From an archaeon (lineage in GTDB: Archaea > Nanobdellota > Nanobdellia > Pacearchaeales > GW2011-AR1): a stretch of DNA of 55,915 nt. Both the position numbers and the translations under genes were made by a program. Shown here one piece after another: positions 16,454 to 55,859 of this stretch (its first letter is position 1; each line of letters begins with the position of its first letter). The stretch is from assembly GCA_018648095.1 (NCBI GenBank), contig JABGRV010000006.1, positions 80,559 to 136,473 on the forward strand, read 5' to 3'. The notes below the pieces were generated by a model. That model was not told the origin of the DNA and ran no database searches. It saw only the letters and a program-made list of their open reading frames with translations.

Positions 16454-16485
16454 AGGTGACCACAATAACTAAGCAGTGGTCACCT
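16454..16485. repeat. inverted-repeat hairpin AGGTGACCAC-N12-GTGGTCACC (copy 1, downstream of Fic)
   Basis: A perfect 9-10-bp GC-rich inverted repeat. A near-identical copy is at 17426..17458. Confidence 0.7.
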
Positions 16486-32484: not shown

Positions 32485-32601
32485 AGTGGTGGATGAGATT
32501 GATGGAGGGGTTGTGGAGAAGCTAAAAAGACCAGGGTATGACAAATAATAGTATTTATAAATCTGAGAATATTCAAATTATTGGAATGGGTGATTTAAAT
32601 A

Positions 32602-33666
32602 ATGTCAAAAGATAAACCGTATACAGTGGCTTCCTTTTTTAGTGGTTGTGGTGGTTTTGATCACGGTTTTGAGAAAAATGATTTCTCAGTTTTATTTGGG
32701 AATGATTCGTGGGAGGATGCTGCTACGACATTTAGGGCAAATTATCCGCAAGTTAAATTTTTTGAGAAACCAATTCAAGACATTACTGAAGAAGAATTAG
32801 CAGAGGTTACTAATAACATGCAAGTTGATGTATTAATTGGGGGGCCCCCTTGCCAGTGTTTCACGAGATTAAATAATAATCATCTGATTAAGTTATCTGA
32901 ACTAAAAAAAGAAGACAATAGAAGAACGCTGTCTCAAGAGTATATTAAAAAGGTTAAACTTCTAAAACCAAAGATAGTGTTGATGGAAAATGTAAGGGAC
33001 CTTCTACATAGGAAAAATCAGGAGGGGAAATTATATTCTGAAATAATTCGGGAGGCATTCAAGGAAATTGGATATGAAACTTACTGTAAAATTATCTCCA
33101 TGGATAAGTATGATGTTCCTCAAAAAAGAAAAAGAGTGATTTTTCTAGCCACTAATGTAAAAAGGTTAATGGAATTTCTTGATGAAAATGTTGATAATGG
33201 ATTCCCAAAGGAATCGAATAGGATAATCACTTCCGGAGAAGCCCTAGCTAAAATAAAAGATAATGAAAGTTTAAGTAACCACAATTTTACGATTAATGAA
33301 CCAGAAACTCTAGAGAAAATAAGGAATATCCCCCCAGGAGGTTATTACGAAGATTTACCAGACTCATTAAAAACAAAGAAAATTCGTAATGGGAAGGAAG
33401 TGATAGTAAAAAGATATGGCTCTTATTATCGGAGGTTACATCCGGATGAGCCTTCAAGAACAATAACAAATAATTACGTAATCCACCCAATCAAAGATAG
33501 ATATCTTTCAAATAGGGAAATGGCAATTTTACATAGCTTTCCAAAACAGTATAAATTTAAAGGAAACATGGGCTCAGTATCTCAACAAATTGCAAATGCT
33601 GTTCCGCCAAAATTTGCCGAAAAAATGGCAAAAAGAGTCCAATTTTTATTGGATAATTATTGTTAA
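32602..33666 (+). CDS. DNA (cytosine-5)-methyltransferase
   Basis: Motif I ASFFSGCGGFDHGF, motif IV GGPPCQCFT, motif VI ENV. Confidence 0.85.
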   Translation: MSKDKPYTVASFFSGCGGFDHGFEKNDFSVLFGNDSWEDAATTFRANYPQVKFFEKPIQDITEEELAEVTNNMQVDVLIGGPPCQCFTRLNNNHLIKLSELKKEDNRRTLSQEYIKKVKLLKPKIVLMENVRDLLHRKNQEGKLYSEIIREAFKEIGYETYCKIISMDKYDVPQKRKRVIFLATNVKRLMEFLDENVDNGFPKESNRIITSGEALAKIKDNESLSNHNFTINEPETLEKIRNIPPGGYYEDLPDSLKTKKIRNGKEVIVKRYGSYYRRLHPDEPSRTITNNYVIHPIKDRYLSNREMAILHSFPKQYKFKGNMGSVSQQIANAVPPKFAEKMAKRVQFLLDNYC

Positions 33667-33672
33667 CTTCAA

Positions 33673-34815
33673 ATGGTAGAAAAAAGTTACAAACTGGGAA
33701 AAGAATATATAGATAAGGGCAATCCCAAGTTTGATGAAGATCAATTCATGCGTTGGTTAAATATTAAGAATGTAAGTGGAATGATGAATTCTCCAGGAAT
33801 TCGGTGGTTAAATTATGCGAAGAAAAAAGATCTTCCTGCCGCAATAATATTAATTTCAAAAACTGCTAGCAGTTCATATCATAATCCTTGGGAGGATGTA
33901 ATCGATAGATTGGCAGGTAAGGCATATTACTGGGGGGATTCTAAATATGATCTAAAAAAATCTTGTGAAGACTTCATGGGAAATAAATTACTAAAAAAGG
34001 TCCACGTTAATCTTTTGGAGGGTAATCTTGATAAGATTCCGCCAATTTTACTTTTTTCAAAGCCAGTAAGTGGAAAAATCTTTTTTGAGGGATTGTGCGT
34101 GTTAGAAAATCTTGAAAGAACTTGGTTTGAGGATAAGGGTAAACCTGTTAGAAATTATCGTGCAATACTCCGGATATTGGATACTGAAAAGGTAAAAATT
34201 GAGTGGATACATAACAGAATATATGAAAAAGAATCCGATTCTCCAAGTGCTTGGAAGGACTATTCTTCTGGAAAAACACCCAAATATCTGAAGGTATGGA
34301 ATAAACGATTAAGATCCAAAAATGAACAATTACCTCCAATTAATTCCAATGATGATTTAATTCTAAAGAGAATAAATAGTTTATTATCCCGGGAGTTTGA
34401 GTTTTTTACAGTAAGACTTCTGGAATCTATAAAAGATATAAAGCATGAAATTGTAACTACTCGGGCAGTAAGGGATAAGGGGTTTGATTTCTTTGGGAGA
34501 TTTACATTGCCATACCCCCTAAAATATGAAATAAATTTTAAAGGAGAAGCTAAAAAGTTTGCAAGGTCTAGCGGAGTTGGACCTAAGGAATTATCTCGTT
34601 TAGCAGCAAAACTAACTCGTGGAGAATATGGGATATTCATCACCACATCGTATTATACATTACAAGCGCAGGAAGAATTATTTGAAGATGATTATCCAAT
34701 TAAGTTAATTAGCGGCAACGATATTATTAATTTTTTAAAAGAGTCAAGAATGATAAAGAATAATGCCCTATCTGAAAAAGATCTTTTTAAATTTTTGAAC
34801 CTTAAGCAAGAATGA
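33673..34815 (+). CDS. restriction endonuclease with an Mrr-type catalytic domain (cognate REase candidate)
   Basis: The C-terminus ...DKGFDFFGRF...GEAKKF...EYGIFITTSYYTLQAQEEL resembles the Mrr_cat fold. It lies 7 nt downstream of the C5-methyltransferase. Confidence 0.55.
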   Translation: MVEKSYKLGKEYIDKGNPKFDEDQFMRWLNIKNVSGMMNSPGIRWLNYAKKKDLPAAIILISKTASSSYHNPWEDVIDRLAGKAYYWGDSKYDLKKSCEDFMGNKLLKKVHVNLLEGNLDKIPPILLFSKPVSGKIFFEGLCVLENLERTWFEDKGKPVRNYRAILRILDTEKVKIEWIHNRIYEKESDSPSAWKDYSSGKTPKYLKVWNKRLRSKNEQLPPINSNDDLILKRINSLLSREFEFFTVRLLESIKDIKHEIVTTRAVRDKGFDFFGRFTLPYPLKYEINFKGEAKKFARSSGVGPKELSRLAAKLTRGEYGIFITTSYYTLQAQEELFEDDYPIKLISGNDIINFLKESRMIKNNALSEKDLFKFLNLKQE

Positions 34816-34858
34816 TCACACAGTTAACTATAAATATGGCCATATTTATTACCTGATA

Positions 34859-35599
34859 ATGGAAGACTATGTAGATTTTGAAGATATATTTAAGAATTTA
34901 ATAAATACTCACAAAAAAGACGAAGATTTTGAGTTAATCAAAGACTATCCTGCAATTTTTTCTTTAATTTCAAATATTTCTAGTGATAAGAGTGCGGATG
35001 GGATCACAAAAATGCTTATGAATAGTGCTATTTCATATTTTATCCTTCCAGAAGATATTATTTCTGAGAAAGAGTATGGGGTAAAGGGTTATGTTGATGA
35101 TTTTTTTATTTGCTTACATGTCTTATCGGAATTCTTAAAATATGATTCTAAACTTGGAGAATATTTAATAAATAAATATTGGACCTTAAAAGAGGATTAT
35201 CACAATTATATCTCTAATAAGTATTATGAACTCATGAAGTTAATCGAGGACTCTGTAAGATCTAATATCTTGTTACATTCGGGTGTAAAATATATTGAAG
35301 AACTCATTATGAATAAAAAAAATCCAAGAAAATACCTTGAATTAAAGGGAAGAGATTTACAAAGAAAGATACATTATTTATTTTTCTTATTTCTTAATAG
35401 GCCTATTGGAAATAAAGAGGCAAAGAAGGAATTTGAAAAAAATTTCTTTGGAACTTCAGAGTTCATGGAATTTTCAAAGAAATTGGATCTACTTGAAAAA
35501 GAAGATAATTCTTTTAGTAGGGCTAAAAAAAATGTGGATGAAATGTTTAGTTTAGAAGAAAATATGAAAAATATAAGAATTAGGAGACTTCTTGGATGA
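34859..35599 (+). CDS. DUF1232 (YkvA-like) domain protein
   Basis: YFILPEDIISEKEYGVKGYVDDFFICLHV matches the DUF1232 pattern. Its stop overlaps the next start. Confidence 0.4.
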   Translation: MEDYVDFEDIFKNLINTHKKDEDFELIKDYPAIFSLISNISSDKSADGITKMLMNSAISYFILPEDIISEKEYGVKGYVDDFFICLHVLSEFLKYDSKLGEYLINKYWTLKEDYHNYISNKYYELMKLIEDSVRSNILLHSGVKYIEELIMNKKNPRKYLELKGRDLQRKIHYLFFLFLNRPIGNKEAKKEFEKNFFGTSEFMEFSKKLDLLEKEDNSFSRAKKNVDEMFSLEENMKNIRIRRLLG

Positions 35600-37623
35600 C
35601 TGGTTTAAAAGAATTATCTGATTCAATAGAGAAAATTTATGATTCCGATTCTGAAGACATAACTGAAATAATGAATCTTCTTTTGAAACAATCTATTAGA
35701 TATAGTAGGATCGGAAGCTATTTTTCTTCAAAATCTTTTATTTCATTAGCGGAGGGGTTGGAAGAACTCTTCTTAAAAAACGGAAAGATGAAGTTGATTA
35801 TTAATTATGAATTAAGTAAGGAAGACCATCAGGAGCTAAAGAAGACTTGTGACTACCAGAAAATTGGAGATAGAATAGCATTAGATATTAAAAATCTGAA
35901 ATCTGAAATGGAGTTAAATTCCGCTAAAGTTTTAGCATGGTTAATCTATCAGGGGAAACTTGAGATAAAGGTTGTTCTTGGAAAAGGCAATAACTTAATG
36001 CATATCAAACAAGGGATATTTGAAGATGAATATGGTGACAAAGTGGCATTTACTGGATCTGCAAATGAAACATATTCTGCCTATGAAAAAAATATTGAAC
36101 AAGTAACTTTTTTCAAAGACTGGATAAGTGGGCAGGAGGAATATGTAGGGGAGTTTATTTCCAAATTTAACAAGTTTTGGGATAATTGTGGGGTTGTGGC
36201 TAAAACTTATTCTTTATCAAAAGCTTTTGAGAACGAATTAATGAGAATTCGGCCAAGGACCGAGGCAGAATTAAAAGAATCCCTTCAAATTATTTCTTCC
36301 AAGAATATGTCCACTAAGAAGAAAAAATCACTCACTCCCTATCCCCATCAAGATGCCGCATTACAAGCGTGGTTGAAAAATGACAAGAGGGGCATAATTG
36401 AAATGCCTACTGGTTGTGGAAAGACCAAAACTGCCCTATTTGCTTTTAGAAAAGCTATAAAATCTGGAAAGAGCGCTACTTTTATCTTTGCTCCAACAAA
36501 GGCCATTTGTAATCAATGGATAGAGGAATTTGAAGGAGAACCTTGCAAAATTTGCAAAATTTATGATAATCCAAATTGGAAAAGAGATTTAAAGAAAAAT
36601 ATTTTGGATTTAAAACTGGGAGTATTTGAGAATCTTGTTGTAGTCGGAAGCTATGCACTAATAACTTCCAAAGTTCTTATCGAAGAAATTAGAACTTTGA
36701 CAGAATTTAACAAGTTTTTAATTGCAGATGAAGCTCATTCTACCGGGGCACTGAAGACCTCCGGGGGTTTAATAGAAGATTATAATTTTCGCCTGGCCTT
36801 AAGCGCTACTCCCAAAAGATATCTTGATGAGGACGGAACAAATAGAGTTTTTGATTTTTTTGGAGGGGTAGTTTATGACAAAATAGGATTATATGAGGCA
36901 ATTTATTCCTTGGGGGTGCTTTGTGAGTATGAGTATCATTTAATTCAAGTTTTTTTAAATGAAGAAGAAATGGCCCAATATTCCAAGCTGACAAAATTAT
37001 TAATTATGAAGGTTTCTATGAAATCGAAAGATAAGTACAATACAAATCTTGACTCAGAAATTCAAAGGCTTGCAGAAAAAAGGGCAAAGATTATAAAAAA
37101 TTGCTCTGCTAAACTAGACAAGCTTCCAGAGATAGTAGAAGAAATTAAAGAAGATAAGTCTATTATTTTCGTTTCTCCGAAACAACGGGAGGAGGTATTG
37201 AAGATAGTCAGAAATAGAATAAAATACCACCAATATACTTATTCTGAGGATACGGAAGTAAGATCTAGGGCCCTTGAAAATTTTAAAGAAGGAAAAATAC
37301 AGGCCTTAGTTGCAATAAAATGTCTTGATGAAGGTTTAGATGTGCCTGCTGCAAGGGCAGGAGTTATTATGGCAAGTTCTGGAAATCCCCGGGAGTTTAT
37401 TCAAAGGAGGGGCAGGCTTTTAAGAAAACATCCCAATAAAAAATATGCAAAGATTTTTGATTTTTTTGTAACTCCCTCTAAGGAGGCTATTAGCTCTTCG
37501 GAGATGTATAAAAATCAGATATCCAAAGAATTAAAAAGAATAACCGAGTTTGCAAAATCTGCTAGAAATGAAATAAAGGTATCGAAAGAATTAAAAGAGT
37601 TAAAATCTAAATTAGGCCTATGA
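35596..37623 (+). CDS. PLD-family (HKD) nuclease fused to an SF2 DEAH helicase
   Basis: HKD-type motif HIKQGIFEDEYGDKVAFTGSANET. Helicase motifs MPTGCGKT (I), IADEAHS (II), LSATP (III), QRRGRLLR (VI). Confidence 0.7.
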   Translation: MTGLKELSDSIEKIYDSDSEDITEIMNLLLKQSIRYSRIGSYFSSKSFISLAEGLEELFLKNGKMKLIINYELSKEDHQELKKTCDYQKIGDRIALDIKNLKSEMELNSAKVLAWLIYQGKLEIKVVLGKGNNLMHIKQGIFEDEYGDKVAFTGSANETYSAYEKNIEQVTFFKDWISGQEEYVGEFISKFNKFWDNCGVVAKTYSLSKAFENELMRIRPRTEAELKESLQIISSKNMSTKKKKSLTPYPHQDAALQAWLKNDKRGIIEMPTGCGKTKTALFAFRKAIKSGKSATFIFAPTKAICNQWIEEFEGEPCKICKIYDNPNWKRDLKKNILDLKLGVFENLVVVGSYALITSKVLIEEIRTLTEFNKFLIADEAHSTGALKTSGGLIEDYNFRLALSATPKRYLDEDGTNRVFDFFGGVVYDKIGLYEAIYSLGVLCEYEYHLIQVFLNEEEMAQYSKLTKLLIMKVSMKSKDKYNTNLDSEIQRLAEKRAKIIKNCSAKLDKLPEIVEEIKEDKSIIFVSPKQREEVLKIVRNRIKYHQYTYSEDTEVRSRALENFKEGKIQALVAIKCLDEGLDVPAARAGVIMASSGNPREFIQRRGRLLRKHPNKKYAKIFDFFVTPSKEAISSSEMYKNQISKELKRITEFAKSARNEIKVSKELKELKSKLGL

Positions 37624-37790
37624 ACGAGTTAAAAAAATTAGTAAATAAGGCGGTTCTTGAAAAAATACCCCTTTCAGAAGATCGGGAGGCACTTTTAGAA
37701 GCAATAAGTATTGAAGAAACTTTTGGTGGGTTAAAATCTACAGATCTATTAGATAAATATGAAAAAATTATAGAGGGACTTATAAAATGA
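37620..37790 (+). CDS. unannotated 56-aa ORF translationally coupled on both sides (MNELKKLVNKAVLEKIPLSEDREALLEA...)
   Basis: ATGA overlaps at both ends: 37620-37623 with the helicase stop and 37787-37790 with the ATPase start. Confidence 0.35.
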   Translation: MNELKKLVNKAVLEKIPLSEDREALLEAISIEETFGGLKSTDLLDKYEKIIEGLIK

Positions 37791-39781
37791 AGTTAAACAA
37801 AATTATAATTGAGAATTATCGGGGCTATTATGGTAAAAATGAGATCGAGTTTAATAATGGAGAAAAGGGAAAACATATAGATTTGATAATAGCACGTAAT
37901 GATACCGGAAAAACTACTTTTTTAAACGCTATCTATTGGTGTCTTTATGGTAAGGAACAATTCTATAATTCAAAAAATAGCAATCAAAGAGTTATGTCCA
38001 ATAAAAAGATTATTGAGACTCCAATTGGAGAAAAATTGAATTTTTCAGTCACACTAGTATTTAGTGATGATAAGGGTCCAAAGGTGGAGATAACTCGTCA
38101 GCGGATATTTAAGAGGGCCAGGGATGAAGATAACGATCTAAAAATTATTCAGGATGGAGAAGATAGATTTTTTGGAATGGAAATTAATAAGAAAGGAACG
38201 GGTTTTGAAAAGATTAATTACCTTGAGAACTTCATATCTTCCCAAATTCCTGAAGGGATAAGCCCTTTCTTTCTTTTAGATGGTGAACAGCTCAAAGCAA
38301 TATTTACTTCCGATATTAATTATAAAATAAAAGATGCCATTGAAAAAGTAGCTAACATAAAATCGATAAATGGTCTAATCGAAAATTTATCACGCTTAGA
38401 TCGCAATTATTCTAGTATGAAATCAGGTATAGATCCGAATTATGGGGCCATACAGGCAAGGATAGATAAGGCAGATGCCACCATCACAAAGACTAAGGCC
38501 GATTTAGAAGAATGGATGAAAGAAAAAGAATCATTAAAGAAACAAATCTCTGAACTTGATGATTATCTCCAGAACCACAATGAGACAGTAGTGAGGGAAC
38601 TAGGAGCAAGGGAACAAAATTTAAGGGGAACTATAGGGCGGGCAGATGAGGATCGTAAGGAATCCGAGGAAAAATTGAATAATATGGTAATCAAGGCCTA
38701 TATTCTAAAAATTGGGAAAAAGAGCCTTTTAGAAACAAGCGATAAGTTTAATGAGATCATTGAGGGGGGGAATTTTCCTCCTGCGGTAGATCCCTCACAT
38801 GTATTACAACTTATTAAGAGGAGAGAATGTATCTGTGGTACAAAAATATCAAAAAATTCTGAAGAAGAAGAAAAACTTAAGAAACTCGCAGATACCAAGA
38901 GTTTTAAAGAATATGTTAGAATAATCTCCCAAGGAGATGCCCAGCTCCCACAGATGATTGAATCTATAAAATCCCTTGTGGGCGATATATCGGTAGAAAG
39001 AAAGAAAGTGTATGGGCATGAGGCACTAATTAAAGATAGTAAAAAGGAGATAGATGAAATTACCTTAAAGTTAAAATCCTCCGACGTGGAAGAAATCCGT
39101 AATAAGGGAGAAGAAAAAGAAATGTTGGAAAGAGAAATTACTCGTAAGGAGGGAGATATCCATCGCGCAGAGGGAGATTTAGATGTTTTAAATATTTCTA
39201 AAAAAGATGATGCCTCTAAATTGAATAGCATAAAGATAAAAGAACTTAAAGATAAACTTCTCATCCAAAAATCAGAAAAATGTAAACAACTTATAACTTA
39301 CTCTAAGGAAATAAAAGAATCAATAATGAAAACTATAAAGGATAAAATAGAAGAATCTACTGCCAAAAACTTCGTAGATCTTCATTGGAAGGCAGAGGAT
39401 TATGAAAAGGTAAGTATCTTAGATGATTTTTCTCTTTCGGTAAGAGATAAATATCGTGGAGAGTTAATCAATGAACTTTCCCAGGGTGCAGCATTATGTT
39501 TTGGTCTTGCTTTTATGACCGCACTTAGGAATTATTCAGGATATGATGTCCCAGTAATAATCGATTCTCCGGTGGGAAAAATAGATGAGGGAAATAGAGA
39601 AAAGATTGCAAAGAGTTTACCTGAACAATTAAAGGGAAAGCAAGTAATCTTCTTAGTTACTAGCTCCGAATACACCTCAGTATTTAAGAAATTTCTTGAC
39701 GACAAAATTTCGACAAAAATTTCGTTAACTTATAATAAAAAAACTGGAGAAATAGACATAGACAATAATGGCAGCGATTGA
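37787..39781 (+). CDS. SMC-like ABC ATPase (AAA_23/DndD/SbcC-like)
   Basis: N-terminal Walker A ARNDTGKTTFLNAIYWCLYG. A long coiled-coil middle follows. C-terminal signature LSQGAALCFGLAF and D-loop VPVIIDSPVGKIDEGN. Confidence 0.7.
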   Translation: MKLNKIIIENYRGYYGKNEIEFNNGEKGKHIDLIIARNDTGKTTFLNAIYWCLYGKEQFYNSKNSNQRVMSNKKIIETPIGEKLNFSVTLVFSDDKGPKVEITRQRIFKRARDEDNDLKIIQDGEDRFFGMEINKKGTGFEKINYLENFISSQIPEGISPFFLLDGEQLKAIFTSDINYKIKDAIEKVANIKSINGLIENLSRLDRNYSSMKSGIDPNYGAIQARIDKADATITKTKADLEEWMKEKESLKKQISELDDYLQNHNETVVRELGAREQNLRGTIGRADEDRKESEEKLNNMVIKAYILKIGKKSLLETSDKFNEIIEGGNFPPAVDPSHVLQLIKRRECICGTKISKNSEEEEKLKKLADTKSFKEYVRIISQGDAQLPQMIESIKSLVGDISVERKKVYGHEALIKDSKKEIDEITLKLKSSDVEEIRNKGEEKEMLEREITRKEGDIHRAEGDLDVLNISKKDDASKLNSIKIKELKDKLLIQKSEKCKQLITYSKEIKESIMKTIKDKIEESTAKNFVDLHWKAEDYEKVSILDDFSLSVRDKYRGELINELSQGAALCFGLAFMTALRNYSGYDVPVIIDSPVGKIDEGNREKIAKSLPEQLKGKQVIFLVTSSEYTSVFKKFLDDKISTKISLTYNKKTGEIDIDNNGSD

Positions 39782-40181
39782 TGAATTCATAAGCAAATTA
39801 AATTATCTAAATATAGATAAAAAAAACAGAGAGATTTATAATAAGTTGAAAAGTTCTAGTATCTTTAAGGGAACTCGGGGAAATCCGGATCTTTTTTTAC
39901 TGAGTCTCGTTATTGGATTAAAGCATGGAAAAAGGAAAAAACTTCTTAATGGAGGAAATCTTTTTAGAATTAGTGAGCTCCAAGAAGATATTTGGACTCT
40001 TTTATCCATTGGTTTTTCAGAGTTAAAGGATATTGAAGTTTTTGAGACAAAGGAAGGTGCAAAAATGGCATTGAAAGTTTGCGAAGAATATGCTAACTCT
40101 GGAATAGAAATTCTTAATGATTTAGCAAAAAAGCCCTCGGAGTTTATTAATCATTTAATTGAAGAATTGTTAAAGAAATAA
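39768..40181 (+). CDS. hypothetical 137-aa protein, last gene of the five-gene operon
   Basis: It overlaps the ATPase stop by 14 nt. Confidence 0.4.
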   Translation: MAAIDEFISKLNYLNIDKKNREIYNKLKSSSIFKGTRGNPDLFLLSLVIGLKHGKRKKLLNGGNLFRISELQEDIWTLLSIGFSELKDIEVFETKEGAKMALKVCEEYANSGIEILNDLAKKPSEFINHLIEELLKK

Positions 40182-42096: not shown

Positions 42097-42921
42097 ATGA
42101 ACACAAACACCCCAACATCCCCAAATCCCCTAAACACAAACACCCCAACATCCCCAAATCCCCTAAACACAAACACCCCAACATCCCCAAAATCATCCCG
42201 CACAAACAACCCCTTAAACAAAAAAGAACGGGAAAACATCTTCGAGATATTCATAAAAAACAAAAAGATGAAGTTCACCGAGATCGAGAAGATGCTCGAC
42301 ATCAGATCTAACCTTCTGAATTATCATCTTAAGATAATGATTGAGGAAGGCTTGCTAGGAAAAGAAGAAGAAATGTACTGCCTTACGAAAGAAGGAGAGA
42401 AAATCATCCCATTCTATGCTCATTTGACAAACAAAGAGAAAGGTTCCCTAGTTATTTGTGCAGTTGCAATAAGACGTAGGGGAGAAATTTGCCTTCTAAA
42501 AAGAAACAAGAGACCTTATCAAGGATATTGGGGAATGATTGGAGGAAAAGTACGCCTAGAAGAATCAATTGAAGAAACTGCCGTTAGAGAAGCCCTTGAA
42601 GAAACAGGCCTAACATGCAAATTCAAGAAAGTAGCCTCAGTACTGCACGAAAGAGTCAAGGATTCTGGGACAGTTAAGCACAGTTTCATCATTTTTCTCT
42701 GCGAAGTCGAAGCAGAAACTGATGATTTAGTCGAAACTGAGGAAGGAGAAGTAAAATGGTTCCCAATAAACACCCTCCCAGAAAACATTATTCCCTCAGA
42801 TAGACTAATGATCGAAAAACTCCTCAAAACAAGAAAGTCAAATATAGGAAAAGTTATGATTGAAGAGGTAGAAGACGAACTAAAAAACTTGGAGTATGAA
42901 GAATATGGCAAAAGACTCTAA
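42097..42921 (+). CDS. winged-HTH (ArsR-like) plus NUDIX hydrolase fusion, with an N-terminal T/P/N-rich tandem repeat
   Basis: wHTH FTEIEKMLDIRSNLLNYHLKIMIEEGLL. Nudix box GGKVRLEESIEETAVREALEETGL. Confidence 0.65.
   Translation: MNTNTPTSPNPLNTNTPTSPNPLNTNTPTSPKSSRTNNPLNKKERENIFEIFIKNKKMKFTEIEKMLDIRSNLLNYHLKIMIEEGLLGKEEEMYCLTKEGEKIIPFYAHLTNKEKGSLVICAVAIRRRGEICLLKRNKRPYQGYWGMIGGKVRLEESIEETAVREALEETGLTCKFKKVASVLHERVKDSGTVKHSFIIFLCEVEAETDDLVETEEGEVKWFPINTLPENIIPSDRLMIEKLLKTRKSNIGKVMIEEVEDELKNLEYEEYGKRL
42100..42198 (+). repeat. 33-bp tandem repeat x3 (AACACAAACACCCCAACATCCCCAAATCCCCTA), coding NTNTPTSPNPL x3
   Basis: Copies 1 and 2 are identical and copy 3 is degenerate. The repeat lies at the 5' end of the wHTH-NUDIX ORF. 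Confidence 0.8.
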
Positions 42922-49058: not shown

Positions 49059-49400
49059 TCAATATTTGAATTTTTTCTCATAGGTTTTATGATCCATCCA
49101 GTCTAAAATAATTGTTATGATTATTGCTTCTCCCCCACGAATAGAGTAAATAAGTCTCCATGCCCCTGGGAGGTTATACTTCCACACATTACTGATGCCA
49201 TGTTTCTTAATATAATCTTTTGGGATTAATCTTTTTGGAATCTGAATTCCGCAGAAAGGATTTTCTTCTATATCGCCTAATGCCTTTTCTAATTGATCTT
49301 TTAGTGGTTTTTCTTCTAGTTCTTCATAGGTTTTTTGCACTTTTTCGTTCACAAATTGGACTTCGCAGGGCTTATTCACTTTTTCTTTCCTCCCCTCCAA
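49059..49400 (-). CDS. RelE/ParE-family toxin-like protein
   Basis: ...LEKALGDIEENPFCG...YNLPGAWRLIYSIRGGEAIIITIILDWMDHKTY follows the RelE/ParE consensus layout. Confidence 0.5.
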   Translation of the reverse strand: MEGRKEKVNKPCEVQFVNEKVQKTYEELEEKPLKDQLEKALGDIEENPFCGIQIPKRLIPKDYIKKHGISNVWKYNLPGAWRLIYSIRGGEAIIITIILDWMDHKTYEKKFKY

Positions 49401-49672
49401 GTCAAATGCGCCTTCTCAAGCCTCTTCTTTGCCTCTTCCGGATAAAATATCCACCCAATTTTTCCTTCACTATCTACAGAGATCTTTCCAGAGATTAATA
49501 GATAATCGATTATGGTACTATACGTTTGATACATCATTTTCTTAGGCAACCTCCCCCATAATTGCTTCTTTTTGTATTCTCCATCTCTTTCTTGTATAAA
49601 TTTTTCCACCATTAAGACCGTATCTAGTCGGGGAGATCTTGCAAGAGTTTTCTTTTCCATCATTAGTTTCAT
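49376..49672 (-). CDS. hypothetical 98-aa protein upstream of and overlapping the RelE-like gene (possible antitoxin)
   Basis: It overlaps the toxin gene by 25 nt in the expected antitoxin position. No fold was recognised. Confidence 0.3.
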   Translation of the reverse strand: MKLMMEKKTLARSPRLDTVLMVEKFIQERDGEYKKKQLWGRLPKKMMYQTYSTIIDYLLISGKISVDSEGKIGWIFYPEEAKKRLEKAHLTWRGGKKK

Positions 49673-49721
49673 AGTTATATCAGATGATATACCCTTATAA
49701 ATGCTTTGATTAGATGCTAAA

Positions 49722-49784
49722 TCAAACCTTCACCAACCCCTTCGGGAAATAAACATACTTATACTCTTCATAAGCAATCAACAT
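49722..49784 (-). pseudogene. orphan 3' fragment of an lrp-like gene (encodes MLIAYEEYKYVYFPKGLVKV*), part of the 48-bp direct repeat
   Basis: Near-identical at the DNA level to the true lrp 3' end at 54187..54234. Nothing lrp-like lies upstream of it. Confidence 0.6.
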
Positions 49785-49805
49785 TAAATAGGCACGAAAA
49801 ACAAT

Positions 49806-50771
49806 CTAATACTTATCCAATATCCCCAATAGATAATCATAAGATTTATTTGTTTGTTTTAACATGAATTGATAATATTTTTTCTTTCGCCCATCTCTTG
49901 CCGAAGCTATTGCATTGAAATATGATTCTTTGTTCTCTTTATGAACGATTATTGGGGGATACCCATTTTGAATCAATATCTTATTTAGGATTAATCTTCC
50001 AGTTCTTCCATTTGCATCTCTGAATGGGTGAATTCTTTCATATTCCAGATGAAAATCATATGCTAATATTAGGGGGTGAATTTTCTTTTTATTTTTCTTA
50101 TACCATTTAATCAATTCTTCCAGTTCTCTTTTGACATCTTTTGGATCGCTCGTTGGAGAGTTACCAACAACTAAATCCACTGTTTTAAATCCTCGGGGAT
50201 AGGGGTTTCTATTATCCATTAGCAATTTTTTAGTTAAAATATAATACAATCTTTTGATTGACTCCAGATTAAAATTAAAATCCTTTAGATATTCAAAGGC
50301 ATCTATTGAATTCAGTGCTTCACGTGCCTCATTTTTGTTTTTATAGCCTAGATTACCGGTTTCTATAATTTTTTTAACTGCCTGTTCAGGGATTTTTGAC
50401 CCCTCAATATTATTAGAATTAAAAATAAATTTAATTGCAAAATCTGTTTCGACAGATTTCGGATGTTTCTTTATCTCCTTTAAATTGTTTATCTTAATTG
50501 CTTTTTCTTCTATTTTTTCGGGAAGATTGCCATCATAAGATAATTCTTTATTAATTGATTTTAAAAAACCTAACTTGAAATTTAATTCTTCTTTTGTAAT
50601 TTTATCCAAATTTTCTAAAAGATGCTTTTCCTTAGTAATTGCTGAGGTCCCCTTTCCGATGTGTTCTTTGTATACAAATTTTTTACCCATAAAAGTAGAT
50701 TTTTTTACAAATTTAAGATAAGTATGCCCCTTAACTTCCACCTTATCAATCGAACTCATATAAATTATCAA
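49806..50771 (-). CDS. Fic/Doc family protein (second paralog)
   Basis: Fic motif HPFRDANGRTGR. It has the same overall layout as the Fic at 16484..17416. Confidence 0.8.
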   Translation of the reverse strand: MIIYMSSIDKVEVKGHTYLKFVKKSTFMGKKFVYKEHIGKGTSAITKEKHLLENLDKITKEELNFKLGFLKSINKELSYDGNLPEKIEEKAIKINNLKEIKKHPKSVETDFAIKFIFNSNNIEGSKIPEQAVKKIIETGNLGYKNKNEAREALNSIDAFEYLKDFNFNLESIKRLYYILTKKLLMDNRNPYPRGFKTVDLVVGNSPTSDPKDVKRELEELIKWYKKNKKKIHPLILAYDFHLEYERIHPFRDANGRTGRLILNKILIQNGYPPIIVHKENKESYFNAIASARDGRKKKYYQFMLKQTNKSYDYLLGILDKY

Positions 50772-50786
50772 TAAAAAGACTTTATA

Positions 50787-50887
50787 TACTTTTCGATCTT
50801 TTGATCCCTAACAATTTTTGCATATAATTGCGTATACATTGGAGCATACAATAGAATTGTCTACTTTTCGATCTTTTGATCCCTAAC
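50787..50887. repeat. two copies of a 26-bp direct repeat TACTTTTCGATCTTTTGATCCCTAAC (50787-50812 and 50862-50887), 75 bp apart
   Basis: Exact identity. It lies in the divergent intergenic region between Fic2 and the deaminase gene. Confidence 0.8.
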
Positions 50888-50971
50888 TTTAAGCTATTTT
50901 TCTACTAATTGGTCCTAACTATACACCACACCCCATAAATCCTTATAAGCAATATCAAACCTCATACAATC

Positions 50972-51541
50972 ATGGAAAAAGGTGATATTCAAGCCATGTC
51001 TCAGAGAGAGCGGGACATTTATTTTTTAAGAGAGGCATTTAAGGCGGCACGAGATTTATCGCAAGATGCAAATCTTCAGACCGGGGCGGTAATCGTCAGC
51101 CCTTCATTAGAAATTATTTCCAGAGGGGCAAATAGAGTACATTTTGGTTTAAATGAGAGATATGATGGGAATGAGGAAAGAGTTATTCTTGAAAGACCTG
51201 AAAAATATTGTGATTTGACTCATGCTGAAAGAGATGCAGCTTATGTGGCAAATAGAAAGGGTATTTCCCTTGTGGGATGTACGCTTTATGCAACGTGGAC
51301 TCCTTGTGAACCTTGTGGAGAGATCGCAATGAATAATGGCATAGCAAGATTTGTTACGCATCAATCAACTACAGATTGGTACAATAAAGATGCAGGGAGT
51401 GTGAAAAATAGAACTGACTGGGCAGATAGCATAGTAAGAGCAATTGAAAAGTTAAGAAGATCCGGAATGGAATATGAATGTATAAGTGATCCAATTGGCG
51501 GAGTAGAATTCATTTTCGAGGATAAGATTAGAGCTCCTTGA
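50972..51541 (+). CDS. CMP/dCMP-deaminase-fold zinc deaminase
   Basis: HAERDAAY...CTLYATWTPCEPCGEIAM is the H(A)E ... PCxxC zinc-deaminase signature. The N-terminus YFLREAFKAARD resembles dCMP deaminases. Confidence 0.6.
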   Translation: MEKGDIQAMSQRERDIYFLREAFKAARDLSQDANLQTGAVIVSPSLEIISRGANRVHFGLNERYDGNEERVILERPEKYCDLTHAERDAAYVANRKGISLVGCTLYATWTPCEPCGEIAMNNGIARFVTHQSTTDWYNKDAGSVKNRTDWADSIVRAIEKLRRSGMEYECISDPIGGVEFIFEDKIRAP

Positions 51542-51645
51542 TCTCCCATCCTTCTAGATGCTTAAATGGTACTCGGAAACCTTAAAAACTCTAAAATCCC
51601 AATAAATGTATCCCAAAGGGAAGAAGAGTTCTGATAAAAAACAAA

Positions 51646-52743
51646 ATGGGATTAACAGCCATTGTGAAACCAACCCACGACTGCAATCTTAGGTGTAAAT
51701 ATTGCTATTTGACTGATGAGGCAGAAAAGGGAATGATGTCTCAAGAAACACTTCAAAATACTATGGCCCAGGTTGCAGAAGCATCGGGGGAAGGGGGAGC
51801 ACATTTTATTTGGCACGGTGGAGAACCACTATTGGCCGGAATGGATTTCTTTAGAGAAGCCGCACAAATTTCACATGCCCTTAAGGCAGATGGACGAAAC
51901 ATCTCTAATGCTATCCAATCAAATGGGACATTAATAACTGAAGAACTTTTAGATTTTATCGAACAAGAAAAAGATTTCTACCTAGGATTTAGCATCGATG
52001 GTCCAAAAGAAGTAAACGACAAAACAAGGGTTCATGCAAGTGGGAAAGGTGCATTTGAAGATATCTTTCGCGGAATAAAAATGGCAAGAGATCGAGAGGC
52101 ATTTGTTGGTAACGGTGCAATAACAGTAGTTAACAAAGAAAATTTGCCTCACCTTGACAAAATATATGATTTCTTTAACGGAGAAAAAATTAGTCTAAAA
52201 CTAAATCATATAATTGATGCAGCAGACCCAACTTTTGGAATCTCTCCTGTTGAGTATGCAACCGCAATGAATAAATTATTCGACAGATGGATCGAAGACT
52301 ACGATGCCATTAGAATAGATCCATTTTCTCAAATTATAGGAAATTTTATGACAAGTAGGCCTTCGGGGTGCAATTATTCGGGCTCTTGCCAAGACAACTT
52401 TGTATCTATAGGTCCCCAGGGAGATATATATCCGTGCGGAAGATTTGACGGACTAAAAGATTACTGGATGGGAAATGTAAACGAACCTAACGGATTAACA
52501 GAGGCACTTGAATCAAGCGTAAGAAAAAGACTTAAAGAAAGAAGACTAGAAAATATGGCAGGATGTAAAAAATGCGACTACGTACCAATTTGTAATGGAG
52601 GATGCCCACATAATGCCCTTGTTGCGGGAGATTTGATGGGCAAAGATCCCTATTGCGCCGGATATAAAATGATGTTCAAACATATTGAAAGGAAAGTACA
52701 TGAAGAATTAGCTAAGACCGAAATGAAAGGAGGTAAACAATAA
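51646..52743 (+). CDS. radical SAM enzyme with a C-terminal SPASM domain (anaerobic-sulfatase-maturase-like peptide-modifying enzyme)
   Basis: CNLRCKYCY (CxxxCxxC) at residues 13-21 with no N-terminal RRE. GGEPLL follows. SPASM cysteines CNYSGSC...C...GCKKCDYVPICNGGCPHN. Confidence 0.8.
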   Translation: MGLTAIVKPTHDCNLRCKYCYLTDEAEKGMMSQETLQNTMAQVAEASGEGGAHFIWHGGEPLLAGMDFFREAAQISHALKADGRNISNAIQSNGTLITEELLDFIEQEKDFYLGFSIDGPKEVNDKTRVHASGKGAFEDIFRGIKMARDREAFVGNGAITVVNKENLPHLDKIYDFFNGEKISLKLNHIIDAADPTFGISPVEYATAMNKLFDRWIEDYDAIRIDPFSQIIGNFMTSRPSGCNYSGSCQDNFVSIGPQGDIYPCGRFDGLKDYWMGNVNEPNGLTEALESSVRKRLKERRLENMAGCKKCDYVPICNGGCPHNALVAGDLMGKDPYCAGYKMMFKHIERKVHEELAKTEMKGGKQ

Positions 52744-52988
52744 TGGCCAAAAAGAAAAAAACCGGTGAAATAATGGGACATGAGATAGATCCTTCAAAAA
52801 TAAAAAATCCACATATCCGAAGAGCAATTAAGCAACGAGGCGGATTTTTATTTTGGTATCGTGAAAATAAAAACTATTGCGAAGGAGGATATCAACCAAC
52901 CCGCTGGCATACAGAACATACGGAAAGTGGAGCATATACTGAACAATATAGACATAATGAACACTGTGATGCAAACGACTACAGGTAG
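52743..52988 (+). CDS. small peptide A (81 aa; candidate precursor/substrate peptide of the radical SAM enzyme)
   Basis: Its ATG overlaps the radical SAM stop (TAATG). The core EIMGHEIDPSKIKNPHIRRAIKQRGGFLF is shared with peptide B. The C-terminus is Y/H/E/C-rich. Confidence 0.5.
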   Translation: MAKKKKTGEIMGHEIDPSKIKNPHIRRAIKQRGGFLFWYRENKNYCEGGYQPTRWHTEHTESGAYTEQYRHNEHCDANDYR

Positions 52989-52999
52989 TTATTAACAAA

Positions 53000-53209
53000 A
53001 TGAAAAACGAAAAAAGATTACCCGATAAATGTGAAATAATGGGACATCAAATAAGTTTAACAGATATCGAAAATCCACATATCCGAAGAGCAATTAAGCA
53101 ACGAGGCGGATTTTTATTTAAATATAAGGAAGTGGAAGACTACGATGATTTACCCCATCCACACTATCAAGCATACGATGATTCAGATGATTATCCGGAC
53201 ATGGATTAA
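53000..53209 (+). CDS. small peptide B (69 aa; paralog of peptide A)
   Basis: EIMGHQISLTDIENPHIRRAIKQRGGFLF, with a 48-nt stretch identical to peptide A. The C-terminus is acidic and Tyr/His-rich: DYDDLPHPHYQAYDDSDDYPDMD. Confidence 0.5.
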   Translation: MKNEKRLPDKCEIMGHQISLTDIENPHIRRAIKQRGGFLFKYKEVEDYDDLPHPHYQAYDDSDDYPDMD

Positions 53210-53256
53210 AGATATAATAAGGGCTCCTTGATTAACTTAATCCCCTGGCCTTTTTC

Positions 53257-54141
53257 TTACAATCCCATACCGCAAGCAACCTTTTGCTCTGCCGTTAAAT
53301 CCTTAATATCTTCCAAATTGAAAACTTGGCTACAGCATCCTGATCTCGCCCAATCCATATTTACTTTCTTACATAGCTCTGGGTCATTTTTTCTTATAGC
53401 AAAATCACTATAACATGAGCTTCGGGCATAACTCCCATCAAGGGGCCCATCATTAAGATATTTATCGCAAAAAGATTCATCCTCCTGTGTACGAGCATAT
53501 GCGAGATAACAGCTTTCACTTATCCACGCTCTTTCACAGATTGTAGGATCTCCTGCAGCAAAAGCCCTCTCGAAGTAGCAGCCTTCATCCCCAGTTAAAC
53601 AAAAACCATTATAGTAAAATTTACCAAAACCAATCAATAATGCTAAGATAATCAGGGCAACAAGAAGTATTGCTGTTCCTTTCCCACGTAAGGAAAAGTA
53701 GACCCAAGAAAATAAGCTAGAAAATATTATTCCAATGACAAAATATGCTGCGATAAAGCCAGTTATCATAAAATATGCCATAGCAGATTCTCCGGAGCAG
53801 ATACCCCTACAAGGAATCATCATAAGCCCATTAAGAAGAACCGCTAGTGCAATTGAGGATATCAATAAAAAATATAAATTTCTCGAAAAGGCTATTTTCC
53901 CTGATTGACGTTCTTTTGATTTTATTGTATTATACGAAGTTATTGAAAATATTATGAATATTGGAATTGGAAACATGAGGGCGGTCCCGAAGAGTCGACT
54001 GACTTCTCTGAATCCACTTACACTAAAAAAACCAACCAAGAGAAATATGCAAAATGTTAAAAGATAAAATCCAGCCCCCCATAAAACTGACTCTAGCAAA
54101 ATCTTCCCCCTACTTTTCACCTGAACTTCTTCTTGATCCAT
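53257..54141 (-). CDS. polytopic membrane protein with a C-terminal Cys-rich domain
   Basis: About 6 TM helices, then a ~110-aa domain with about 10 Cys. It is convergent with the peptide genes. Confidence 0.5.
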   Translation of the reverse strand: MDQEEVQVKSRGKILLESVLWGAGFYLLTFCIFLLVGFFSVSGFREVSRLFGTALMFPIPIFIIFSITSYNTIKSKERQSGKIAFSRNLYFLLISSIALAVLLNGLMMIPCRGICSGESAMAYFMITGFIAAYFVIGIIFSSLFSWVYFSLRGKGTAILLVALIILALLIGFGKFYYNGFCLTGDEGCYFERAFAAGDPTICERAWISESCYLAYARTQEDESFCDKYLNDGPLDGSYARSSCYSDFAIRKNDPELCKKVNMDWARSGCCSQVFNLEDIKDLTAEQKVACGMGL

Positions 54142-54168
54142 CCTTTCAGATAATCGCGTTAGAAGTTT

Positions 54169-55182
54169 TTAAGGGTTTCCAACAAGCCCCTTCGGGAAAT
54201 AAACATACTTATACTCTTCATATGCAATCAGCATTTCATATCTGTTCAACTGCTTAGGAAACAATCCTCTCAACTTCAAGATCGTCTCCTGTAAATCCGC
54301 AACATCCTTGACCAATAGGTAGATCAAAACATTATATCTCCCAATAGTCTTAACTGCCCAAAGCGTATTACGATCTTTATCCAAGAAACTCTTCAACTTA
54401 TTCTCTTTCTCCGCATCGAACCCATCGATATTCAACAAGAAGGTGTATAAACTATAACCAAGCGAGATATAATTAATCGCAGGGATAAACTTGATGATCA
54501 CTCCTGATGCAATCATGTTCTTTATCCTATAACTAACAGCGTCGGCAGAAAGCCCAACTTTCCCCCCGATCTCAAACAAAGGAGTCTGAGCTTCTTCTCC
54601 CAAAATATCCAAGATTTTAATATCAACTCCATCCAACTTACCACGACTACCCCCAACAACATCCTTCTTCATTGGAGCCAACCCAGAAAAATTAGGTGGA
54701 AAAGTCTCCGCAACATAATTCTTTGAGATCGCCAGAACTTCATAATCCTGGATCATCCCATTACAATCTGATAGAACCTTCCCTAAAACATCATCCAAAC
54801 CAGAAACACCCTTAGCCACCAATGCAATCTCCAAATCAAAGTTCCCACTGAACTTCAAGATCGCCCTAATAAATGGCCGCTTCACCAACTTAGCAACAAC
54901 CTTCTTTTCAGCTTCAGAAGATGGATTATTCAACTTAATGAACAGATGATAATTGTCATAGCCAAATTTTCCAATATTCACAATCGTTCTATAACCCTGA
55001 ATAACTCCCTTATCCTCAAACCCCTTAATTCTATAGCTCACAGCATCCCTAGAAAGCCCCACCTTCTTAGAAATCTGGGTGAGTGGCATCCTAGCATCAG
55101 TAGAAAGAAGTGAAACAATCTTCTTATCCTTCACATCAAGCTTAACCTGCTTAACCTTTCCATTCTTCTGTAAGTATCTCAT
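54169..55182 (-). CDS. tandem-duplicated Lrp/AsnC-family transcriptional regulator (two HTH+RAM units)
   Basis: Two repeats of ...KIVSLLSTDARMPLTQISKKVGLSRDAVSYRIK... / ...KILDILGEEAQTPLFEIGGKVGLSADAVSYRIK..., each followed by a RAM-like region. Confidence 0.75.
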   Translation of the reverse strand: MRYLQKNGKVKQVKLDVKDKKIVSLLSTDARMPLTQISKKVGLSRDAVSYRIKGFEDKGVIQGYRTIVNIGKFGYDNYHLFIKLNNPSSEAEKKVVAKLVKRPFIRAILKFSGNFDLEIALVAKGVSGLDDVLGKVLSDCNGMIQDYEVLAISKNYVAETFPPNFSGLAPMKKDVVGGSRGKLDGVDIKILDILGEEAQTPLFEIGGKVGLSADAVSYRIKNMIASGVIIKFIPAINYISLGYSLYTFLLNIDGFDAEKENKLKSFLDKDRNTLWAVKTIGRYNVLIYLLVKDVADLQETILKLRGLFPKQLNRYEMLIAYEEYKYVYFPKGLVGNP

Positions 55183-55241: not shown

Positions 55242-55859
55242 ATGTTTAATATAAAACGCATCCTTAAGGTTATTATGGAAGGAAAACACGAAGAAATGTT
55301 GGGGGAGGTCATTGAGATAGCAAGAGCAGACTATCCAGAGTTACCTTATCACAACTTTGCACATGGAATGGATGTCTGGAACACCGCAAGACAATACGCT
55401 AAGATGGCAGGCATAGGCGGAGAAGAACGTTTCGCCCTAGAAACCGCCGCAGTCTTACATGATGTCATTGTGATTCCTGAAAGAACAGATAATGAACTAG
55501 AAAGCGCAATGTATGCCGCAGATAGATTACCCGATTTCGGCTATTCAATCGACCAAACAACAAGGGTTGGAGAAATAATCGTAGCTACAGTTATGCCTCA
55601 AGATCCAAAAGACCTTTCAGGAAGAATAATCTGTGATGCAGACCTTGGCCAACTTGGAAGACCTGATTTCCTAAAGAGATCCGAAAATCTAAGGGAAGAA
55701 TGGGACAAACCCCACAATCTAGAATGGCTTGAAGGCCAAGTAGCATTCCTAGAAGGTCACAAATACCATACTGATATAGCTAGAAGGCTAAGGGATCCTG
55801 GAAAGGCAAGGAATGTTGAGTTAGTGAAAGGCTTGATTCGAAACTACAAGAAAAAATAA
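55242..55859 (+). CDS. HD-domain phosphohydrolase
   Basis: YHNFAHGMDVWNTA...AAVLHDV shows the H...HD signature. Confidence 0.55.
   Translation: MFNIKRILKVIMEGKHEEMLGEVIEIARADYPELPYHNFAHGMDVWNTARQYAKMAGIGGEERFALETAAVLHDVIVIPERTDNELESAMYAADRLPDFGYSIDQTTRVGEIIVATVMPQDPKDLSGRIICDADLGQLGRPDFLKRSENLREEWDKPHNLEWLEGQVAFLEGHKYHTDIARRLRDPGKARNVELVKGLIRNYKKK

Follow-up and report, generated by a model that had tools for sequence, protein, structure and literature searches.

Phage 21 and e14 integrate at the 3' end of the E. coli gene icd. Both bring an alternative 3' end, the gene remains functional, and the original end is displaced as a stub. Tycheposons of Prochlorococcus, a subject of Hackl et al., reportedly leave integrase-less cargo islands at attachment (att) sites. 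Of 68 integrated elements in Thaumarchaeota, 14 occupy the 3'-distal region of a protein-coding gene, in one case a gene for an AsnC-family regulator, with a new stop codon supplied by the element (PMC6563490; PMC8371274). NitGar-E6 is the element in the AsnC-family case, and NitEve-E2 is inserted in a gene for a Zn-finger protein (Krupovic et al. 2019, PMC6563490; review PMC8371274). Here, we describe an island of 4450 nucleotides (nt) at the 3' end of lrp, a gene for a tandem Lrp/AsnC regulator, in a DPANN archaeon of the Pacearchaeales. The DNA analysed, referred to throughout as the window, is a stretch of 55,915 nt from GenBank contig JABGRV010000006.1 (positions 80,559 to 136,473). The island was probably gained by a single crossover between the end of lrp and a circular DNA, which would have left lrp with an imported 3' end.

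The original prediction, made from the nucleotide sequence, was of an island bounded by 48-bp direct repeats that match at 46 of 48 positions and duplicate the 3' end of lrp. A search of the window with the 48-mer, allowing up to three mismatches, confirmed the pair. Only two sites were found: one at 49737-49784, with no mismatches, and one at 54187-54234, with two. No matches were obtained in any of 100 dinucleotide-preserving shuffles. After ungapped extension, the direct repeat is 59 nt long and 90% identical (49732-49790 and 54182-54240), with a start-to-start spacing of 4450 nt. Within it, a core of 36 nt is perfectly identical (TATGAAGAGTATAAGTATGTTTATTTCCCGAAGGGG; 49737-49772 and 54187-54222). 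Contigs from 12 distinct samples span both copies, in the same arrangement, at 99.6-100% identity. Note that these contigs come from differing pipelines, with MEGAHIT-style k141 names, SPAdes NODE names, and both JGI and NCBI records. An assembly artefact, named at the outset as a result that would speak against integration, is excluded because the arrangement is identical in 12 samples built with different assemblers.

The gene, the stub, and the parts of each repeat copy are listed below. The arms are labelled according to the interpretation that follows.

54169-55182, minus strand: lrp, encoding a tandem Lrp/AsnC regulator of 337 amino acids (aa), a putative hybrid gene (Pfam HTH_AsnC-type, twice, HTH_24, and AsnC_trans_reg)
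54182-54240, minus strand: attL-like repeat copy within lrp, with the native 5' arm ATGCTGATTGCA (54223-54234), followed by the 36-nt core (54187-54222) and the first part of the imported 3' arm (repeat search and three-way alignment)
54169-54186, minus strand: putative imported gene end CTTGTTGGAAACCCTTAA (L V G N P stop), replacing the ancestral TTGGTGAAGGTTTGA (three-way alignment)
49722-49790, minus strand: attR-like orphan stub, with the imported 5' arm ATGTTGATTGCT (49773-49784), the 36-nt core (49737-49772), and the ancestral lrp end with its stop codon (49722-49736) (repeat search and three-way alignment)

The stub is an open reading frame (ORF) of 63 nt, on the minus strand at 49722-49784, with 20 codons (MLIAYEEYKYVYFPKGLVKV, then stop). 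It begins 21 nt past the stop codon of fic2, which encodes the Fic-domain protein Fic2 and is in frame with the stub. There is no Lrp-like sequence upstream, and the earlier description of an orphan stub holds. All nucleotide differences between lrp and the stub, over 18 shared codons, are synonymous. Hence, both repeat copies descend from functional gene ends.

To assign polarity, an outgroup is needed. We found 263 Lrp homologues, which carry Pacearchaeota, Woesearchaeota or Nanoarchaeota annotations. Among the best 120, the majority end in ...YFPKxLF and, being at most 68% identical, say little about the ancestral gene end. Closer relatives are in the 90% cluster of the window Lrp. These are P0122, which is 92% identical and encoded on a 13.6-kb JGI contig, and P0125, from contig L088. 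Both end in ...FPRGLVKV. The ending ...GLVKV is that of the stub; the window lrp ends in ...KGLVGNP. In their C-terminal halves, P0125 and P0122 do not differ. Therefore, L088 DNA stands for the sister lineage at the lrp end.

The two repeat copies were then aligned with the sister DNA as a third sequence. On the 5' side of the core, both the window lrp and the sister lrp have ATGCTGATTGCA. The stub has ATGTTGATTGCT, different at two positions. On the 3' side of the core, 14 of 15 positions match between the stub (TTGGTGAAGGTTTGA) and the sister (TTGGTGAAAGTTTGA), and the window lrp has CTTGTTGGAAACCCTTAA. Similarly, TTGGTGAA(A/G)GTTTGA is common to the sister lrp and the stub, and is absent from the window lrp. 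The alignment presents the repeat copies as reciprocal hybrids of the attL/attR kind. Namely, in lrp the core would join a native 5' arm to a foreign 3' arm, and in the stub it would join a foreign 5' arm to a native 3' arm. Such a reciprocal pattern points to one reciprocal crossover, between a chromosomal site and a circle with a homologous segment (attB x attP giving attL and attR). Codons 1 to ~332 of lrp are accordingly labelled native here, and the last five codons and the stop are taken as imported. The polarity differs from that first supposed. The copy inside lrp had been regarded as the genuine 3' end of the gene. While this copy does sit inside the lrp 3' end, the reverse applies to the distal part, where the last 15 nt of the stub (TTGGTGAAGGTTTGA, ...LVKV and stop) are ancestral. 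Nor is the stub a mere duplicate. Judged by the outgroup, it is the last 18 nt of the window lrp (CTTGTTGGAAACCCTTAA, ...LVGNP and stop) that were imported with the island.

The sister lineage is also informative for the DNA on either side of the island. The two flanks, in the window, are as follows.

55242-55859, plus strand: left flank, an HD-domain gene, the conserved divergent partner of lrp (HD205 homologue upstream of lrp in most of the closest lrp orthologous loci)
49059-49720, minus strand: right flank, a toxin-antitoxin cassette of orf98 (49376-49672) and a RelE/ParE-like gene (49059-49400) (weak ParE_toxin match; sister orthologues)

An HD205 homologue, on the strand opposite lrp, is also present in some of the more distant lrp loci. 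Gene order in the sister, taken from a 13,641-bp contig of JGI sample 3300072015, is the HD gene, lrp (...KV and stop) on the opposite strand, a methyltransferase, a PQ-loop protein, an 83-aa ORF, orf99, and RelE. The sister genes of 99 aa and 131 aa share 90% clusters with the window orf98 and RelE/ParE-like genes. In the sister, a cassette of ~1.4 kb, consisting of the 261-aa methyltransferase, the 82-aa PQ-loop protein, and the 83-aa ORF, fills precisely the space from the lrp stop codon to the toxin-antitoxin genes; its ends are at 1545-1553 of L088 and 1-143 of L105. Two sister-type contigs, L104 and L105, align with the window from 49720, 2 nt past the stub stop codon, to 49059, with 92-93% identity. 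Upstream of the point where alignment starts, these contigs have the end of the 83-aa ORF and the stub is absent. In the other direction, L105 runs on into the HD_4 gene, as does the window. None of the six island genes is present in the sister, though both flanks are orthologous (HD205-lrp and orf99-RelE131). Taken together, these contigs indicate that the junction between lrp and the toxin-antitoxin cassette has different cargo in two close lineages.

These comparisons bear on two earlier expectations. On an empty site in related genomes, with lrp followed directly by the RelE-like region, the picture is mixed: the sister has both flanks and lacks the stub and the island genes, but a different 1.4-kb cassette occupies the junction. 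That the radical SAM/peptide system, in the island, is acquired cargo is supported by a sister that has both flanks and no island genes. More distant genomes were also compared. Across 80 GTDB lrp loci, the HD gene and lrp are the sole syntenic pair, and the region downstream of lrp is different in each (54-65% identity). Island genes adjoin lrp in none of these loci, nor in the sister. Note that, as evidence for an empty site, the 80-genome comparison is uninformative, since gene order past lrp is scrambled at this level of identity. When lrp and orf98 were looked up as exact matches, every contig recovered came from the window population and bore the island.

The orf98-RelE cassette deserves a separate remark. 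At ~82% nucleotide identity, DNA corresponding to ~49061-49711, which takes in the region upstream of the cassette, occurs in two unrelated DPANN contexts, after a cyclophilin gene and beside a GNAT gene. The copies are at 7912-8613 of L103, 5897-6598 of L143, and 5902-6600 of L139, and the antitoxin protein is at least 90% identical. Hence, the cassette looks portable in its own right. We also considered that the stub might be a travelling part of this cassette. This was rejected because, in L103/L143 and L139-L142, homology covers ~49061-49711 only and never the stub.

We propose the following sequence of events. A circular DNA of ~4.45 kb would have recombined with the 3' end of lrp on the chromosome. 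In this circle, the final ~22 codons of an lrp-like gene would have separated the end of fic2 from the start of a gene for a Cys-rich membrane protein. Crossing over would have occurred at some point within the 36-nt stretch that is identical in both partners. Afterwards, lrp would be native up to the core and imported beyond (...LVGNP and stop), with the gene intact. The displaced native end (...LVKV and stop) would have been left 4.45 kb downstream, as the 63-nt stub. The stub would be preceded by the 5' arm of the circle and followed directly by the original downstream neighbour, orf98-RelE. The cargo, comprising the membrane protein, peptides resembling those of ribosomally synthesised and post-translationally modified peptide (RiPP) systems with their maturase, the deaminase-fold protein, and the Fic protein, would now be fixed in the population. 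Note that the imported tail puts the membrane-protein gene 27 nt behind lrp on the same strand.

Parts of this proposal differ in strength. The alignments and the sister contigs establish the topology and its polarity, and show that the sister lacks the island. One Campbell-type crossover, in the 3' end of lrp and between lrp and a circular DNA, is well supported by the two junction sequences and we regard it as probable. What the circle was is a different matter. By analogy with the elements of Thaumarchaeota, the incoming DNA may have been an integrative element whose target is the 3'-distal part of a protein gene, for which it brings a replacement end. Its recombinase would have acted in trans or been lost later. 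We consider this to be about evenly balanced against homologous recombination.

Several observations weigh against an integrative element, or limit the comparison with the sister. The island contains no tyrosine or serine recombinase, casposase, or transposase, and is filled by six intact genes. Island ORFs match only Fic, deaminase, and radical SAM/SPASM families, or nothing, in Pfam, PHROG, and NCBIfam. There is no room for a remnant of an integrase because intergenic gaps, in the island, are at most 200 nt. A Pfam scan of 58 window ORFs identified no integrase, resolvase, transposase, or Cas1, and none of these appears in gene tables covering 9 kb past the window. The island gene set is also devoid of mobile-element hallmarks (replication, capsid, and conjugation genes). 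Dyad symmetry in the att region is not above chance. Thus, the best imperfect inverted repeat in 66 nt was equalled or beaten in 252 of 300 shuffles, though the test is weak. A duplicated gene tail occurs in none of 74 other lrp orthologous loci. A 26-nt core sequence was absent from viral and metagenome contig collections; the window's own population was absent too, so those collections evidently lack these samples. Island composition is host-like. Values for G+C content at third codon positions (GC3) are 0.26-0.31, compared to 0.32 +/- 0.06, and codon-usage z scores are -1.3 to +1.9, relative to 55 other window genes. The remaining points concern the DNA used for comparison. The assembled contigs examined include no strictly empty site (lrp then orf98 directly), excised circle, or attP junction. 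Sister DNA is known only from the short contigs L088, L104, and L105, and both junctions are reconstructed from these. Furthermore, the L088 lrp matches the window exactly as far as nt 613, and the remainder is sister-type, with ~17% divergence (L088 535-1545; a low-coverage contig of 1.5 kb). Either L088 derives from a recombinant strain or it is a chimeric assembly of two co-occurring lineages.

These results also bear on what the original prediction had said about mechanism. Its remark that no integrase is left inside the island agrees with the ORF scans. A matching recombinase, which the prediction proposed to look for elsewhere in the genome, was not found in the range examined, which is the 56-kb window and 9 kb beyond. 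A compositional signature of foreign origin did not appear, given that GC3 and codon usage, in the island, are no different from the 55 other window genes. As for site-specific integration into the lrp 3' end, with reconstitution of the gene end, insertion by a single crossover and attL/attR behaviour stand. Site-specificity is about as likely as not, no recombinase, significant dyad symmetry, or recurrence having been found in the data examined.

Logically, a crossover of this type does not require a mobile element. A linear piece of chromosome from a related DPANN archaeon could have been taken up, circularised, and integrated by homologous recombination across the lrp tail, which is highly conserved. 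In the donor, lrp would natively end in ...GLVGNP and stop, with the genes from the membrane protein through to Fic2 following. No mobile element or integrase would be involved, and the 'attP' would be the donor's own lrp 3' end. We see this as possible, and as the one serious competitor, while holding it only tentatively. It accounts for the lack of a recombinase anywhere in the data examined, for an att region without dyad symmetry, and for lrp-tail duplications in 0 of 74 loci. Similarly, the cargo resembles ordinary DPANN accessory genes, with chromosomal orthologues of Fic2 and the radical SAM-peptide pair elsewhere, and the composition of the island is host-like. Synonymous differences between copies are those expected between orthologous genes, and the core is conserved at the nucleotide level even between window and sister, making it a plausible substrate. 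Conversely, no donor is known: a Lrp ending in GLVGNP was met nowhere outside the window's own 90% cluster, and searches for homologues of the membrane protein found none in other genomes. This route also needs an accidental circle, with its joint ~66 nt from the donor lrp stop codon, and 36-59 nt is short as a substrate. Elements that carry a replacement gene end are, on the other hand, a documented archaeal pattern.

Other explanations dispense with a circle, and are contradicted because of the reciprocal arm pattern and the support from multiple samples. If the stub were the remnant of a second lrp, arising from a tandem duplicate or paralogue whose body was deleted or overwritten, the genes in between would be old neighbours. 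The stub does retain its reading frame and protein sequence, and a second tandem Lrp gene is found ~5 kb past the window. However, that paralogue is only 23% identical, and was rejected as a source of the stub for this reason. Upstream of the stub there is no Lrp-like sequence and the fic2 stop codon is just 21 nt away, while the sister has a single lrp and no island genes. The non-ancestral end on the intact gene, the ancestral end on the stub, and the reciprocal arms would be left unexplained. We thus consider a decayed paralogue very improbable. Slightly less credible still is a transposon or casposon-like insertion, with a long target-site duplication of the lrp tail and subsequent divergence of the copies by mutation. 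An insert flanked by direct repeats would fit, but we know of no transposase that produces a duplication of 48-59 nt. Furthermore, duplicates would begin identical. The differences observed lie at the two ends only, form a reciprocal pattern when set against the outgroup, and change about half of the last 18 nt of a functional gene. The island ends have no terminal inverted repeats, and neither a transposase nor Cas1 is present. Finally, nothing specific favours the repeat being an assembly artefact, a chance repeat, or a recurring regulatory element. The structure is constant in contigs of 12 distinct samples and different assemblers, only two copies occur in 56 kb, with matches in 0 of 100 shuffles, and the repeated sequence is the coding 3' end of a conserved gene. 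We give this practically no credence. A single crossover between lrp and a circular DNA remains our preferred reading.

We now describe the island in more detail. Its genes, in order from the end of lrp, are listed here.

49773-54222, no strand: the inserted DNA, 4450 nt, with exact ends undefined within the 36-nt core and numbering from just after the stub core (repeat spacing)
53257-54141, minus strand: Cys-rich multi-pass membrane protein, 294 aa, start 27 nt past the new lrp stop codon (no Pfam, PHROG or NCBIfam match)
53000-53209, plus strand: precursor-like peptide of 69 aa, leader in common with the 81-aa peptide (70% identity over 37 aa; homologues after radical SAM orthologues in L089-L092)
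52743-52988, plus strand: precursor-like peptide of 81 aa, start overlapping the radical SAM stop codon (similarity to the 69-aa peptide; orthologous loci)
51646-52743, plus strand: radical SAM/SPASM peptide maturase, 365 aa (Pfam Radical_SAM E = 1e-20, SPASM E = 4.5e-6)
50972-51541, plus strand: dCMP/cytidine deaminase-fold protein, 189 aa (Pfam dCMP_cyt_deam_1 E = 2e-14; PHROG dCMP deaminase)
49806-50771, minus strand: Fic2, Fic-domain protein (Pfam Fic E = 1.5e-16)

Domain searches agree with the content first read from the interval, namely Fic, dCMP-deaminase-fold, and radical SAM/SPASM proteins, two related peptides, and a Cys-rich membrane protein. Among 5.8 billion proteins, the only match to the membrane protein was itself, with no relatives outside the lineage. 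For the maturase, the best NCBIfam models were DynA (dynobactin maturase)-like and anaerobic-sulfatase-maturase-like, all scoring below cut-offs. The two peptides are alike (70%) over an N-terminal stretch of 37 aa, and divergent beyond. The underlying DNA repeat, at 52765-52876 and 53031-53142, is 79% identical. The conserved leader reads ...MGH.I....I.NPHIRRAIKQRGGFLF, and the divergent cores are rich in aromatic and acidic residues. In orthologous loci L089-L092, a peptide gene is likewise adjacent to the radical SAM gene, with stop and start codons overlapping (L089 4323-4571; L090 9098-9436; L092 6668-6865). With a maturase that has Radical_SAM and SPASM domains, and precursors that share a leader, these three genes have the make-up of a predicted RiPP cluster.

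The genes of the island have relatives in other places, but not together. The nearest relatives of the radical SAM protein, with 70-78% identity, have only the adjacent peptide gene in common with the island and sit in another conserved context. Orthologues of Fic2, with 64-83% identity, were detected on 14 metagenome contigs, with neither the stub nor other island genes nearby. The radical SAM-peptide pair and Fic2 orthologues thus occur in unrelated DPANN-like contexts and must have been assembled here secondarily. Searches starting from the membrane protein, the radical SAM protein, and Fic2 did not find the island gene set together elsewhere.

Two short repeats were noted in the island. 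The 14-nt motif AACCCTTAAAAACT (AA[A/C]CCTTAAAAACT) is at 54164-54177, on the minus strand; it lies across the imported stop codon of lrp and 22 nt upstream of the membrane-protein start. The only other copy in the window is at 51577-51590, on the plus strand, 55 nt before the radical SAM start. None of 100 shuffles had two matches, as the window does, but the motif was chosen after the data had been seen. It may be a promoter element common to island genes. The motif pair fits with the new lrp end and the island promoters arriving as one piece of DNA. Separately, a 31-nt direct repeat pair (50782-50812 and 50857-50887; 94% identical and 75 nt apart) lies between the divergent genes for Fic2 and the deaminase-fold protein. 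This is probably an operator or promoter element.

Possible variation between strains was seen in fic2. Contig L101, of 6 kb, departs from the window inside fic2, at 50559. Its first 329 nt are AT-rich and unrelated to the window, and encode a 47-aa ORF and a different N-terminus for Fic; the rest is 99.97% identical. Contig L102 starts at window position 50555, nearly the same position as the divergence in L101. These contigs represent either a strain-level structural variant or an assembly chimera. Contig L106 has the ordinary arrangement. On one ENA contig, of 3,690 bp, Fic2 is encoded as two fragments of 137 and 120 aa (P0253 and P0254). This is due to either a frameshift, with fic2 becoming a pseudogene in some strains, or a sequencing error.

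A broader idea is that the interval between lrp and the toxin-antitoxin genes is a hot spot for cassette exchange, free of recombinases, in these DPANN archaea. Short and highly conserved gene tails would serve as landing pads, for single-crossover capture of circularised chromosome pieces from relatives or of non-autonomous cassettes that an unlinked integrase mobilises in trans. This is hinted at because a different 1.4-kb cassette occupies the sister junction and the promiscuous orf98-RelE cassette adjoins it. Nevertheless, we rate the idea as unlikely.

Other features lie in or near the window. A second tandem Lrp gene, 23% identical to that described here, is beside a third Fic gene, ~3-6 kb past the window end (L001 4344-6862). 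Another Fic gene, fic1, is at 16484-17416 of the window. The segment beside the HD gene varies by strain, with GTPase and HSP20 genes that are present in L001 and absent in L002. A defence-like block, at 30970-40181, encodes a DUF2779 protein, a C5 cytosine methylase, an AspBHI/Mrr-like restriction enzyme, a DUF1232 protein, a PLD-helicase fusion, and an AAA_23 ATPase. Finally, a C-rich repeat array, with a 33-nt unit (AACACAAACACCCCAACATCCCCAAATCCCCTA), is at 42100-42198, at the 5' end of an ORF (42097-42921) with winged helix-turn-helix and NUDIX parts.

Our analysis dates and polarises, to the single nucleotide, a gene gain in a DPANN archaeon. The RiPP-like radical SAM cluster, the Fic and deaminase-fold proteins, and the lineage-specific membrane protein would be acquired, rather than ancestral, and the C-terminus of the lrp regulator would be chimeric. 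The lrp-RelE interval is flagged as a variable locus and, for annotation, the 63-nt stub should not be called a gene. A new mechanistic question arises only if the absence of a recombinase proves to be genome-wide. Were the hot-spot idea true, it would offer genome-reduced symbionts a general route to functions, such as a RiPP cluster, without conventional mobile-element machinery.

The kind of event described is already known in archaea; what is new is a DPANN case without an integrase gene. Phage 21 and e14 share with the island differences between the two gene ends that are largely synonymous. Unlike the island, which has no integrase or phage genes, they are bacterial prophages with their own tyrosine integrase beside att, and their duplicated segment, at ~165 bp, is longer. 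Integrase-less tycheposon islands are reportedly also small blocks of accessory genes. As with the island, parts of the target gene are repeated at both sides, a recombinase is not encoded within, and the locus has other cargo in sister strains. The tycheposon cases are said to be bacterial and in tRNA genes, with the family of mobilising elements identified; none is known for the island. An integrase is part of the definition of the cryptic elements of Thaumarchaeota; the island has none, and its host belongs to the DPANN archaea. Most att sites of those elements measure less than 26 bp (median 17 bp), compared with a repeat of 59 nt and a 36-nt core in the island. The elements have a median size of 17 kb, with some as small as 2.6 kb; the island is 4.45 kb. 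Other features are shared. In each case the host is archaeal and the target is the 3'-distal part of a protein gene, once, among the Thaumarchaeota elements, that of an AsnC/Lrp-family regulator. Flanking direct repeats, a new stop codon supplied by the insert, displacement of the original end, and an insert-free relative as a check are common to both.

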